Sequence record: OQ721911
Direction: 5' to 3' (one strand)
Source: Escherichia phage vB_VIPECOOM03
Length of the DNA: 64,000 bases
Part shown: positions 16,708 through 50,673 of the stretch, piece by piece
How positions within the stretch are numbered: the first letter of the stretch is position 1
How the letters are laid out: every line of letters starts with the position of its first letter
Made by a program: the position numbers and the translations under genes
Notes under the pieces: generated by a model
What the model saw: the letters and a program-made list of their open reading frames with translations, nothing else
Databases searched by the model: none
What the model was told of the DNA's origin: nothing

Positions 16708-16768
16708 TTTGTGTTCCTCATGTTATGTAAGTAAAATTACTATAACACAACACGAGGGACTTGTAAAC
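16708..16768 (-). promoter_or_regulatory. Early promoter-like element with leader (GTTTACA -35, TATAGT -10, GAGGA SD)
   Basis: - strand reads GTTTACAAGTCCCTCGTGTTGTGTTATAGTAATTTTACTTACATAACATGAGGAACACAAAATG; about 55 bp are nearly identical to the element upstream of alc at 32478-32535. Confidence 0.6.
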
Positions 16769-18825
16769 TACATTTTGAACTTTTTAGACATTCCGTTGAT
16801 GTTAACCAAAGAAGCCAAGATTTGAGAAACTTCGTTTTCCTCTTCTTTTGATTCTTCTACAAGGAATTGATTAAATCCAGCCATTGGACGAACTTCACCA
16901 GTTTCCATCAGATGGTCGCCATCATATACCGATTCTTCTAATTGTTCAGAAGGAGGAACGATTGTGCCTTCGACTAGATACTTATTATAAGCAGTTTCTT
17001 TCATCATGTACGTACTCACTTTATTAATCTTCAGTAGAATTCCACGTGGTAGAATAATTTCAGCTTCTGATGGAAATCCTGATAAATGACCTGGAACGAT
17101 AACTTTGATTCGCTCAGCTCCTTTAATTACCATACCAACGCTAGTTTCAGCATCTTCATTCGCATAAGCAGAGCGACTGCCCATATGCATCAAATCTTCT
17201 GCGTCAACTGAACCTTCTCCTTCACCAGAAAATACTGCACCGGAATCATCTAGAGCCATATAGTTTTTACCATACTCACCGAAGATATTTGGTTTAAGCG
17301 ATGTGGATACGAAGTTCTTGAAATAAAACATTTTATTTTCAATATTATGGCGTAAAGTTTTGAAAGTAACTTCTTGTCCACGGTAAAGTGTAGTTCCTGG
17401 AGGAAGAACTGAACCTTTAGCAAAGGCAGAATCCATTGTCTCGATGTGTTTAATAGCTCGTTCCATATATTCTTCACGGGTAGAATCTGGTTTACCTAAA
17501 AGGAACGAGTTCATTTCAACATATGAATCTGCACAATAATCTTCAATTACATCAGATTCAGCTTGAGTCAGTCCTTTTGGAGTTACTTCGGTGCTTGCGT
17601 ATTCATATGCCTGGGCGGCAGATTCATTAATCAATTTATAAATGCCATTCATGACAAATTGAATAATAGCTACCTTTTCATCTGGCGTGGCTTTAGAACC
17701 TTTAACTAAATCATTAACAATTTTCTTAATAACATCAAAGCTGTTAGAAATATTAATATCAGAAAGATCACTTAAAATTTTATCAGTTTTATAATCAAAA
17801 AATTCTTTATTCTTTAAATATTCTTGAGAACCTTGATATGTTATATCGCTCTGTAATTTAATAGATGGATCACGTAAACGTGCATGAGCCAATGCAATAT
17901 GATTTCGGAAGCTTTCTAGTTCATAATCGTTAGATTTAAAACGAGAAGCGCTTCTCATACCACCTATAGCTCCTTTGCTGAAGTTTGAACCAATTTGAAT
18001 AACGCCAGAGTTCATTGATCCTTCTGCTTTATATACCGGAACTTTAGATTCAAACTCTTGATATTTCTTAGCAGCGAAGCTATCGCCCTGAAGTGAAGCA
18101 TCAACAGTAGAATATTGAGCTTGTGCTGCTAATCGACGACTAATTTTAGTTTTCTGAATAACAGCTTGATCCGTGCGCTTATCATTTTCTAAAGCAATAG
18201 AAGCAGCAACAGCAACAGCTTTAGGAACAGCATTACCCGTTTTAACGTCTACATAAACATCACCAACCTTTGATTCAACTTTTGTGAATAACTCAGTTGA
18301 AATAGGAGGTACACCTGGAATGTCTTCTAAATTGGCATTTTTACGGTAAACCATAATATATGCATACTTTTTATCGTAATCCCAGATTTCCTTTAAAAGA
18401 ACATATCGACCTGCTCCTTTAGTACGTACTAAACGGTCGGCAATAACTTGCATTTGACGAGCTGCGCCGTTTGTTTTACTCTTTAGTACGCGGAATAAGC
18501 ATGCATCAATTTTATACTGTTTCATTGTTTGAAGAGCAGTATCAAAAACCGCATTAATGACACCAATTGGGTTTCCACCCAAGTTTTTAAGTTTAACTAA
18601 TGATAGTTTTTCATTGACACCTATCATTACGATATGCATCATTTTATCGCCTGGCTTAACGTTTTTATTTGTATCACCACCAGAGGTGTATGTACAAAAT
18701 CTAAATCCAGGAAGCACACTTTCTTCACCGGCTTGAATAGCAAAAATTTGAGGTATTTTATGCTTAGGATTTAAGTTAACAACCGGCGCCGAAGCGCCGT
18801 CAAATAATTCTGTAATAAGTTCCAT
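16768..18825 (-). CDS. Alt-like ADP-ribosyltransferase paralog (685 aa)
   Basis: N-terminus MELITELFDGASAPVVNLNPKHKIPQIF parallels Alt; retains R (LYRGQ), STS (FVSTSL) and ExE (SEAEIILPRG) motifs and the shared C-terminal YDGDHLMETGE. Confidence 0.85.
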   Translation of the reverse strand: MELITELFDGASAPVVNLNPKHKIPQIFAIQAGEESVLPGFRFCTYTSGGDTNKNVKPGDKMMHIVMIGVNEKLSLVKLKNLGGNPIGVINAVFDTALQTMKQYKIDACLFRVLKSKTNGAARQMQVIADRLVRTKGAGRYVLLKEIWDYDKKYAYIMVYRKNANLEDIPGVPPISTELFTKVESKVGDVYVDVKTGNAVPKAVAVAASIALENDKRTDQAVIQKTKISRRLAAQAQYSTVDASLQGDSFAAKKYQEFESKVPVYKAEGSMNSGVIQIGSNFSKGAIGGMRSASRFKSNDYELESFRNHIALAHARLRDPSIKLQSDITYQGSQEYLKNKEFFDYKTDKILSDLSDINISNSFDVIKKIVNDLVKGSKATPDEKVAIIQFVMNGIYKLINESAAQAYEYASTEVTPKGLTQAESDVIEDYCADSYVEMNSFLLGKPDSTREEYMERAIKHIETMDSAFAKGSVLPPGTTLYRGQEVTFKTLRHNIENKMFYFKNFVSTSLKPNIFGEYGKNYMALDDSGAVFSGEGEGSVDAEDLMHMGSRSAYANEDAETSVGMVIKGAERIKVIVPGHLSGFPSEAEIILPRGILLKINKVSTYMMKETAYNKYLVEGTIVPPSEQLEESVYDGDHLMETGEVRPMAGFNQFLVEESKEEENEVSQILASLVNINGMSKKFKM

Positions 18826-18828
18826 GAT

Positions 18829-20922
18829 TTATCCTTGAACGAACTTGTAAGGCATGTTTGTAATATCTATGCAAGACGCAATAATTCCAAGAGATGATTC
18901 TGCTTTCTGTTTAACATTTGATGAAACAAATGATGCAAAGTCAACTCTGTCTTCTATTTCAATATCACCTGTCATTGCAACCAATTCACCAGTTTCCATT
19001 AAATGGTCTCCATCATAGATTACCGATTCGGTGAGTTCTTCCGTAGTCATAACTTCAGCTTGAATGAGTTTTGTATTATTAGATGTTGTTCCGTCATTAT
19101 TGGAAGCATCAGTTATTTTATTAACTTTGACCATCAATCCGCGTGGTAAAATAACTTCAGCTTCAGTTGCTATTCCGAGACTTCCTGGATATACAACATT
19201 AACTTTATGAGCTCCATCAATTGCCCATCCTATTTGAACTTTAACGTATTCAGGATTTTCTTTATACGCTCTTATTTCGTTTGGATTAATAGTTATTCCT
19301 TCTTCATTTTTATCAACTGTTAATTCATTGCGAGCTTCTGGTTCTAAAAGACCAATACCAGCATGCGTAATTCCAAAACGTCCAAAAATGATAGGAGTTA
19401 AAGAAGTAGATACAAAATTTCTGAAATAGAACACTTTATTTTTAACTAGTGCTTCGTATATAGGAGCAGTCATACTTTGAGCACGATAAACTGTAATGCC
19501 TTCTGGTATACGGTCACCATTTTCAAAGGCTGAATCTAAATTATTTATCGCAGATTCAATTTCTTTTTCACTCATTACATCATATCGTTCTGGATTATAG
19601 CGTCCTAAAAGAAGATTATTGATGTCAGTATATCCTGATCCACAATACTCTCTAATGCCGCGCTTTTGCGATGGAGTATATTTAGAACCATCACGGGCAA
19701 TAGTAATATCAATCATTGGACCTGCACCAATTCCAGAAAAGCTATAAATCATTCGTTTGAGGAATTTAGTTTTTGCTGCGTTCCAGGAATTTTTAGTTAT
19801 TTCTTCCCAGACTTCATCTGGCTGTCCTTTACGGGTTTTATTATGTTTATCAAGCCAAGTATCTTTATATTCTTCAAAGAATTTATTAATAGCTGCTGCA
19901 TACTTCTCTAAACATTTTATTGAAGTAGTTGGTTCATTTTTGATCGCGTTAAAAATTACATCTTTAATTTTTTCAGAAACTTCATTAACCTCACTTTTTG
20001 AAAAGAATTTATAGTCATAGTGAAGTTCATCTGCAGTCCCTTCGGCAATAATTTTTGCTGCCTTAGTTTTAGAAGCTAATGAATTAATTCCAAGTTTCAT
20101 TTCTTCCGCTTCGGGAATTAAAGGAGCTGTAGCAGGTTTATTGAAATTAGCTGCAGTAGATTCATACTTCTGGAATAATTCACTTTCAAATCTAGAAGAT
20201 TCCAATGACTGACTTTGTGCAATTGCTCTACGGGAAATTTTAACTTTAACTATTACAGCTTGGTCAGAACGTTTATCGTTTTCTTGCGCAATAGATGCTG
20301 CAATTGCCTCATTTTTAGTTACTTGAGCTCCAGTATCTTTATTGATATAAACATCGCCGACCTTCGATTCAACTTTAGTAAAGAGCTCGGTACTAATTTC
20401 TGGAACTCCTGGAATGTCTTCTAGTGATACATTTTTGCGATGTATAAGAATATATGCATACTTTTTATCGTAATCCCAGAGTTCCTTAAGAAGGACGTAT
20501 CTGCCACCTGAACGACTACGGATAAGTCTATCAGCAATAACTTGAATTTGTCGAGCTTGACCAGCAGTTTTAGACTTAAGAATACGGAGCATACAGGCAT
20601 CAATTTTATACTGACGCATCGTCTGCATTGCAACAGTAAAAACTGAATTGATATAATTAATTGGGCTTGGACCGAGACCTTTTAATTTAGCAATTGAACC
20701 TTTAGCAGTTAATGTAAAAGGAACAATATGCATCATTTTATCGCCCATTTTTAAATCGCGATTAGTATCACCTCCAGATGTATAGGTACATAAACGAAAG
20801 CCTGGTTGTTCAATTGCGTCATCAACATGAACTGAAAAAATTTGCGGTATTTTCTTCTTTGGATTTAAGTTTGTAATCGGAAGAGTAGTATCTTCGTCAA
20901 ATAATTCTGTAATGAGTTCCAT
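18829..20922 (-). CDS. alt: Alt ADP-ribosyltransferase (packaged internal protein)
   Basis: MELITELFDEDTTLPITNLNPKKKIPQIFSVHVDD matches T4 Alt; R (VYRAQ), STS (FVSTSL) and ExE (TEAEVILPRG) present; start placed at the second ATG with better SD spacing. Confidence 0.9.
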   Translation of the reverse strand: MELITELFDEDTTLPITNLNPKKKIPQIFSVHVDDAIEQPGFRLCTYTSGGDTNRDLKMGDKMMHIVPFTLTAKGSIAKLKGLGPSPINYINSVFTVAMQTMRQYKIDACMLRILKSKTAGQARQIQVIADRLIRSRSGGRYVLLKELWDYDKKYAYILIHRKNVSLEDIPGVPEISTELFTKVESKVGDVYINKDTGAQVTKNEAIAASIAQENDKRSDQAVIVKVKISRRAIAQSQSLESSRFESELFQKYESTAANFNKPATAPLIPEAEEMKLGINSLASKTKAAKIIAEGTADELHYDYKFFSKSEVNEVSEKIKDVIFNAIKNEPTTSIKCLEKYAAAINKFFEEYKDTWLDKHNKTRKGQPDEVWEEITKNSWNAAKTKFLKRMIYSFSGIGAGPMIDITIARDGSKYTPSQKRGIREYCGSGYTDINNLLLGRYNPERYDVMSEKEIESAINNLDSAFENGDRIPEGITVYRAQSMTAPIYEALVKNKVFYFRNFVSTSLTPIIFGRFGITHAGIGLLEPEARNELTVDKNEEGITINPNEIRAYKENPEYVKVQIGWAIDGAHKVNVVYPGSLGIATEAEVILPRGLMVKVNKITDASNNDGTTSNNTKLIQAEVMTTEELTESVIYDGDHLMETGELVAMTGDIEIEDRVDFASFVSSNVKQKAESSLGIIASCIDITNMPYKFVQG

Positions 20923-48711: not shown

Positions 48712-49827
48712 ATGGAAAAATTTATGGCAGAGTTTGGACAAGGATACGTCCAAACGCCATTTTTATCGGAAAGTAATTCAGTAAGATATAAAATAAGTAT
48801 AGCGGGTTCTTGCCCGCTTTCTACAGCAGGACCGTATGTTAAATTTCAGGATAATCCTGTCGGAAATCAAACATTTAGCGCAGGTCTTCATTTAAGAGTT
48901 TTTGACCCTTCAACAGGAGCATTAGTTGATAGTAAGTCATATGCTTTTTCTACTTCAAATAATACTACATCAGCTGCTTTTGTTAGTTTCATGAATTCTT
49001 TGTCAAACAATAGACTTGTTGCTATATTAACTAGCGGAAAGGTTAATTTTCCTCCTGAAGTGATATCTTGGTTAAGGGGAGCAGGAACTTCAGTTTTTCC
49101 ATCAGATTCAGTATTGTCAAGATTTGACGTATCATATGCTGCTTTTTATACTTCTTCTAAAAGAGCTATTGCATTAGAGCATGTTAAACTAAGTAATAGA
49201 AAAAGCACAGATGATTATCAAACTATTTTAGATGTTGTATTTGATAGTTTAGAAGACGTCGGAGCTACGGGATTTCCTAAAAGAACATATGAAAGTGTCG
49301 AGCAATTTATGTCAGCGGTTGGTGGAACTAATAACGAAATTGCGCGATTGCCAACTTCAGCTGCTATAAGTAAACTATCTGATTATAATTTAATTCCTGG
49401 CGATGTTCTTTATCTTAAAGCACAGTTATATGCTGATGCTGATTTACTTGATCTTGGAACTACAAACATATCCATTCGTTTTTATGATGCATCAAATGGA
49501 TATATTTCCTCTACCCAAGCTGAGTTTACTGGGCAAGCTGGGTCTTGGGAATTAAAGGAAGATTATGTAGTTGTTCCTGAAAATGCAGTCGGATTTACTA
49601 TATATGCGCAGAGAACTGCTCAAGCTGGTCAAGGCGGAATGAGGAATTTAAGCTTTTCTGAAGTATCAAGAAATGGCGGCATTTCAAAACCTGCCGAATT
49701 TGGCGTCAACGGTATTCGTGTTAATTATATCTGTGAATCGGCTTCACCTCCAGATATAATGGTACTTCCTACACAAGCCTCTTCTAAAACTGGCAAAGTG
49801 TTTGGGCAAGAATTTAGAGAAGTTTAA
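48712..49827 (+). CDS. 35: Long tail fibre hinge protein gp35
   Basis: 371 aa, syntenic between genes 34 and 36. Confidence 0.92.
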   Translation: MEKFMAEFGQGYVQTPFLSESNSVRYKISIAGSCPLSTAGPYVKFQDNPVGNQTFSAGLHLRVFDPSTGALVDSKSYAFSTSNNTTSAAFVSFMNSLSNNRLVAILTSGKVNFPPEVISWLRGAGTSVFPSDSVLSRFDVSYAAFYTSSKRAIALEHVKLSNRKSTDDYQTILDVVFDSLEDVGATGFPKRTYESVEQFMSAVGGTNNEIARLPTSAAISKLSDYNLIPGDVLYLKAQLYADADLLDLGTTNISIRFYDASNGYISSTQAEFTGQAGSWELKEDYVVVPENAVGFTIYAQRTAQAGQGGMRNLSFSEVSRNGGISKPAEFGVNGIRVNYICESASPPDIMVLPTQASSKTGKVFGQEFREV

Positions 49828-49832
49828 ACTGA

Positions 49833-49860
49833 GGGAGCCTTCGGGTTCCCTTTTTCTTTA
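49833..49860 (+). terminator. Gene 35 terminator hairpin GGGAGCC-UUCG-GGUUCCC plus U-run (copy 1)
   Basis: 7-bp stem (one G-U pair), UUCG tetraloop, UUUUUCUUUA. Confidence 0.6.
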
Positions 49861-49959
49861 TGAATCGGCTTCACCTCCAGATATAATGGTACTTCCTACA
49901 CAAGCCTCTTCTAAAACTGGCAAAGTGTTTGGGCAAGAATTTAGAGAAGTTTAAACTGA

Positions 49960-49987
49960 GGGAGCCTTCGGGTTCCCTTTTTCTTTA
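49960..49987 (+). terminator. Duplicated terminator hairpin (copy 2)
   Basis: Identical sequence 127 bp downstream of copy 1. Confidence 0.6.
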
Positions 49988-49993
49988 TAAATA
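49986..49993 (+). promoter_or_regulatory. Late promoter TATAAATA for gene 36
   Basis: TATAAATA spanning the 3' edge of repeat copy 2, 24 bp upstream of the gene 36 ATG. Confidence 0.65.
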
Positions 49994-50016: not shown

Positions 50017-50673
50017 ATGGCTGATTTAAAAGTAGGTTCAACTGTGGGTGGATCTGTCATTTGGCATCAAGGAAATTTTCCATTGAATTCAGCCGGTGAC
50101 GATGTACTCTACAAATCATTTAAAATATATTCAGAATATAATAAACCGCAGGCAGCTGATAACGATTTCGTTTCTAAAGCTAATGGCGGTACGTATTTAA
50201 ATAAAGTAATTTTTAATAAAGGAATGACTGTTCCTGGTGCAGGGTCAGGTGACAATGGTATTTTTGCTGGTCCTGGTGATAATGCCACGTATGATACTAC
50301 AAATATGGATATTGTTTCGTGGTATGGTATTGGTTTTAAATCATCACAGGGTTCAGCGGGTAGAACTGTAGTAATTAACACGCGAAATGGAGATATTAGC
50401 TCAAAGGGTGTAATTGAAGCATCACAAATACGCGCAACTTCATTATCACCAGTAAATAATTATGACCTTACACGGAAAGATTATGTTGATGGAGCAATAA
50501 ATATTGTTACAGCAAACGCAAACTCTAGAGTATTACGCTCTGGAGACACTATGACAGGAAATTTGACTGCGCCAAACCTTTTTTCACAGAATCCTGCATC
50601 TCAACCTTCACATGTTCCACGATTTGATCAAATTGTTATTAAGGATTCTGTTCAAGATTTCGGCTATTATTAA
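50017..50673 (+). CDS. 36: Long tail fibre distal hinge subunit gp36
   Basis: 218 aa, [46 protein letters not shown]. Confidence 0.92.

Follow-up and report, generated by a model that had tools for sequence, protein, structure and literature searches.

Genomes of T4-like phages are circularly permuted. Tandem duplications arise in T4, and headful packaging tolerates 127 additional bases. Real tandem duplications usually show some microhomology at the junction. Short-read assembly of a circularly permuted genome yields a cycle, which SPAdes writes as a linear contig with the first k bases repeated at its end, k being the largest k-mer of the run (here 127). For SPAdes, '127 bp artificial overlaps' at contig ends have been described (PMC5923482). 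In another study "terminal repeats of 127 bp" were removed by the authors before the genomes were reopened (PMC8104045).

Escherichia phage vB_VIPECOOM03 (OQ721911) was published with a length of 168,519 bp, and its raw reads, 2 x 250 bp at about 6,300x coverage, are available as SRR23866065 (PMC10508110). It belongs to a group of three coliphages (01, 02 and 03) which originate from one site and were called identical species; only vB_VIPECOOM03 was reported (PMC10508110). In the published pipeline SPAdes was run with -k 21,33,55,77,99,127 and the genomes were then reoriented to rIIA/terL (PMC10508110). Pilon and manual editing were also part of the processing (PMC10508110). According to CheckV the genomes are complete 'with direct terminal repeats' (PMC10508110), which is the appearance expected of a k-mer overlap at the ends of a contig.

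Here we analyse a stretch of 64,000 nt of OQ721911 (the window), which carries a perfect 127-bp tandem duplication between the long tail fibre genes 35 and 36. From the sequence and the published methods taken together we conclude with high confidence that this duplication is the end overlap of a SPAdes assembly with k = 127, internalised when the genome was reoriented. It is almost certainly a property of the deposited sequence and absent from the phage DNA.

The repeat at the junction of genes 35 and 36

The features of the locus are as follows.

48712..49827, + strand: gene 35 (long tail fibre proximal connector, gp35), 371 aa; from the list of open reading frames (ORFs), with an identical gene annotated in OQ721909.1
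49734..49860, + strand: repeat copy 1, 127 nt; probable 3' end of the original SPAdes contig
49831..49852, + strand: intrinsic terminator hairpin of gene 35, copy 1; from folding and pattern match, with a terminator in annotated relatives
49850..49871, + strand: junction of copy 1 and copy 2, CTTTTTCTTTA|TGAATCGGCTT; probable join made at reorientation
49861..49987, + strand: repeat copy 2, 127 nt, identical to copy 1; probable 5' start of the original SPAdes contig
49958..49979, + strand: intrinsic terminator hairpin of gene 35, copy 2; second occurrence of the copy-1 hairpin
49986..49993, + strand: T4-type late promoter TATAAATA of gene 36; from the sequence, annotated at the homologous site in vB_EcoM_ASO78A
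50017..50673, + strand: gene 36 (long tail fibre distal hinge connector), 218 aa; from the ORF list and the annotation of OQ721909.1

Reading of the sequence and direct string comparison both reveal two 127-nt units arranged head-to-tail (49734-49860 and 49861-49987), which are identical base for base (127/127 nt), start 127 nt apart and have no spacer between them. Tandem Repeats Finder reports the same repeat at 49734-49992 with a period of 127 and 2.0 copies. All three agree with the first-pass annotation of this DNA, which had placed a perfect 127-bp tandem duplication at these positions. An exhaustive scan for perfect tandem duplications with periods of 20-600 returned this repeat as the only one in the window. 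Identity extends past the unit by 0 bases leftward and by 1 base rightward (T at 49988), so that the boundary of the unit is ambiguous by one base. Microhomology at the junction (49860/49861) therefore amounts to 1 base, no more than expected by chance; a duplication does not strictly depend on microhomology. The 28-mer across the junction of the two copies is CCCTTTTTCTTTATGAATCGGCTTCACC. The repeat is bordered by the unique flanks GTTAATTATATCTG on the left and TAAATAATATTAAAATAAAGG on the right, and the two flanks with one unit between them measure about 160 nt. Dropping either copy restores the single-copy sequence of the sibling phages.

The unit begins one base ahead of codon 342 of gene 35 and runs through the last 30 codons of this gene, its stop and the terminator hairpin into the late promoter of gene 36, of which it contains the first bases. 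The ORF list and the hairpin positions thus bear out the anatomy that had been assigned to it earlier (30 gene 35 codons, stop, terminator hairpin, and the gene 36 late promoter adjacent). The end of the intact gene 35, i.e. its last 30 codons and its stop, sits within copy 1. In phage AR1, gene 35 is annotated as '35: hinge connector of long tail fiber, proximal connector'. The hairpin GAGGGAGCC-TTCG-GGTTCCCTT, followed by a T-run, is present twice (49831-49852 and 49958-49979) and folds with -15.1 kcal/mol (z = -3.45). In curated relatives the hairpin carries the annotation of a rho-independent terminator, and a T4-type late promoter is annotated at TATAAATA. The right boundary of the repeat lies inside this promoter; consequently TATAAATA is recreated by the second copy only, and copy 1 ends with TATGAATC.

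A further pair of similar sequences is found elsewhere in the window. On the - strand, 16768-20922 holds two adjoining genes for Alt-like RNA polymerase ADP-ribosyltransferases, which are so annotated in the identical sibling record. They have exact 30-mers in common (window 18355 and 20449, a distance of about 2,094 nt), and judged by their sequences they appear to be tandem paralogues.

Siblings, relatives and companion genomes

The best matches to the locus are vB_VIPECOOM01 and vB_VIPECOOM02, which are 100.0% identical to it over 24 kb except for 127 absent bases. After removal of copy 2, the window and positions 104520-168392 of OQ721909.1 (vB_VIPECOOM01) differ by 0 mismatches in 63,873 nt. 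The exhaustive scan of vB_VIPECOOM01 over the homologous 64 kb found no perfect tandem duplication. The alignment shows a clean 127-nt gap in both vB_VIPECOOM01 and phage e11/2. Record lengths agree with these observations, as the 168,519 bp of vB_VIPECOOM03 equal the end of OQ721909.1 (168,392) plus 127 exactly. Moreover, the last base of the window (64000) corresponds to the last base of OQ721909.1, just past rIIB. Hence the window is the last 64 kb of a genome whose start had been set to rIIA by rotation.

Single-copy junctions are the rule beyond these siblings. A 901-nt query over the locus matched 564 phage records (566 places), mostly Tequatrovirus, and all of the matches listed (40 of 564) span 772-774 nt, i.e. 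the query minus 127. The 127-nt unit by itself is single-copy in every phage record that holds it (486/486). None of these 486 records has it twice, for instance at both ends of an unrotated record. A second copy of the unit is therefore an unlikely reason for the excess of places over records (566 against 564) with the longer query. Against 50,697 phage records the junction of the two copies gave no contiguous match, and contigs from viral, genome and metagenome collections contained no exact copy of it. The first-pass annotation had proposed a comparison with related phages at this junction and had considered that the duplication might be a fixed feature of the lineage. The single-copy state of all unit-bearing records speaks against such a feature.

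We extended the scan for tandem duplications to two companion genomes from the same paper, OQ721914 and OQ721915, whose reads are filed under SRR23865899 and SRR23865898, respectively. Klebsiella phage vB_VIPKPNUMC01 (OQ721914, Jiaodavirus, 167,797 bp) has exactly one perfect tandem duplication with a period between 20 and 600. Its period is 127 and it is located at 117483-117738. Tandem Repeats Finder detected none in three 50-kb chunks of this genome; the repeat lies in the fourth chunk and was caught by the exhaustive scan. Pseudomonas phage vB_VIPPAEUMC01 (OQ721915, Pakpunavirus, 92,158 bp) likewise has exactly one in this range of periods, again with period 127, at 72776-73032. Neither OQ721914 nor OQ721915 has overlapping record ends. 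Identity past the unit extends over 1 base in the window, 2 bases in OQ721914 and 3 bases in OQ721915, which is about chance level.

In each of the two companion genomes the repeat falls inside a gene, and 127 is not divisible by three. The gp29-like "baseplate hub subunit and tail length" gene of OQ721914 is annotated as two CDS (_00216 and _00217). With the repeat its ORF encodes 91 aa, and deletion of one copy extends it to 577 aa. In T4, gp29 is essential. For this reason a plaque-purified phage cannot credibly have a frameshifted gp29-like gene as its consensus. The phrog_3360 gene of OQ721915 is cut into CDS _00138 and _00139, and the ORF at the repeat grows from 92 aa to 167 aa once one copy is deleted. 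This site is single-copy in 12/12 of the relatives listed. A later sibling of OQ721915 on the same host strain (PQ429081) measures 92,031 bp, which is 92,158 minus 127.

The same SPAdes settings (k = 127) and reorientation were applied to the Enterobacter phages OQ721912 and OQ721913, for which an integrase is reported (PMC10508110). These two records may hold the 127-bp artefact as well.

Origin of the duplication

We propose the following course of events. The cyclic assembly of vB_VIPECOOM03 would have been opened arbitrarily at the gene 35/36 junction. Rotation to the rIIA start would then have joined the old contig end to the old contig start with the overlap left untrimmed. By this step an untrimmed 127-bp terminal repeat would become a perfect internal 127-bp tandem duplication. 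We infer that the raw contig had its ends at 49860|49861.

Several lines of evidence argue for an internalised SPAdes overlap. The unit of 127 nt has the length of the largest k-mer in the published SPAdes settings, and its two copies are adjacent and perfectly identical. The published methods state both k = 127 and the reorientation, and the genome is of the cyclic, rotated kind in which an overlap can be internalised. The repeat is absent from siblings that are identical over the compared region and from all other relatives. The 127-bp signature recurs in two unrelated genomes of the same pipeline, and in OQ721914 it breaks a baseplate gene. One observation points the other way: vB_VIPECOOM01 and vB_VIPECOOM02, which presumably went through the same processing, show no 127-bp repeat over the 64 kb to which the sibling comparison extends.

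The first-pass annotation had left the choice between a very recent duplication and an assembly artefact. The value of k, the single-copy siblings and the same signature in OQ721914 and OQ721915 uphold the second part of this statement and not the first. A genuine, very recent tandem duplication in vB_VIPECOOM03, generated by illegitimate recombination or replication slippage, is in our judgement very improbable. Such an event would have to be recent, since the copies are perfect. It would also be viable, as the right edge of the repeat is intergenic and genes 35 and 36 as well as the late promoter are intact. Gene 35 would then be followed by two tandem terminators, and the C-terminal codons of gp35 would be present a second time without being translated. 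However, a genuine event would have to match the assembler's largest k in length, to do so with only 1 nt of junction microhomology, and to be absent from siblings of the same site, of which vB_VIPECOOM01 shows 0 differences in 63,873 nt. The two-copy state occurs in 0/486 relatives, and the 127-nt period is common to three unrelated genera of one paper and disrupts genes in OQ721914 and OQ721915. That vB_VIPECOOM03 truly carries a fresh 127-bp duplication as its sole difference from its two siblings, with the match to k a mere coincidence, we thus regard as a very slight chance.

A different kind of assembly artefact might be considered, such as a mis-join at a repeat, an effect of Pilon polishing or a window that runs across the ends of an unrotated record, because the exact processing of OQ721911 is not visible and Pilon and manual editing were used. 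It is highly unlikely, since the unit is unique in relatives and offers no repeat to mis-join, the window ends where the sibling ends past rIIB and the duplication is accordingly internal to a rotated genome, the repeats of OQ721914 and OQ721915 lie well inside records with non-overlapping ends, and a length of 127 specifically indicates a k-mer overlap.

If the repeat is an internalised assembly overlap, the functions proposed for it at first lose their basis. Tandem terminators that change read-through into genes 36-38, an orphan micro-ORF of the gp35 C-terminus and a substrate for unequal recombination had all been suggested, and each of them presupposes a duplication that is most likely not in the phage DNA. 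We also considered a functional double terminator. The hairpin itself is a good terminator, but its doubling is conserved in no relative. A two-hairpin design upstream of gene 36 was not seen among the relatives listed, which have one copy and a single annotated terminator. Translation of the 22-codon micro-ORF or of a 50-codon TTG ORF (49802-49954) was dropped from consideration, the duplication itself being almost certainly artefactual.

Consequences for the records and comparison with known systems

We find no evidence of altered tail-fibre transcription, and the duplication is biologically immaterial. Its value lies in curation, as three records (OQ721911, OQ721914 and OQ721915) are to be flagged for correction. 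The 168,519 bp of OQ721911 probably include 127 bp in excess. It is likely that all three records need 127 bp removed and that the two split genes need re-annotation. The same error does harm in at least two companion records: in OQ721914, where it splits the baseplate hub/tail-length gene, and in OQ721915, where it splits the phrog_3360 gene. A clean reference is worthwhile, because both vB_VIPECOOM03 and vB_VIPKPNUMC01 have been put forward as candidates for therapy, and the proposed species 'Tequatrovirus vipecoom' is anchored by the former. At little cost, this artefact can also be flagged specifically in other rotated phage genomes by a perfect internal tandem repeat whose length is 21, 33, 55, 77, 99 or 127 bp.

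Among known systems, the terminal k-mer overlap of SPAdes resembles the repeat in its length (the largest k), in its perfect identity, in the cyclic assembly and in the direct terminal repeat called by CheckV. It differs in position: in OQ721911 the overlap is not at the ends of the record and would have become an internal tandem repeat after untrimmed rotation to rIIA. Spontaneous tandem duplications of T4 share with it the head-to-tail direct repeat in a T4-like genome, which headful packaging could tolerate. In contrast to the present repeat, nothing would lead them to have the length of an assembler parameter or to appear in unrelated phages with exactly 127 bp each time. The single junction of Tequatrovirus phages such as e11/2 and ASO78A consists of the gene 35 stop, the hairpin terminator, TATAAATA and gene 36. 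After removal of one copy the locus of vB_VIPECOOM03 has the same arrangement and does not differ from that junction.
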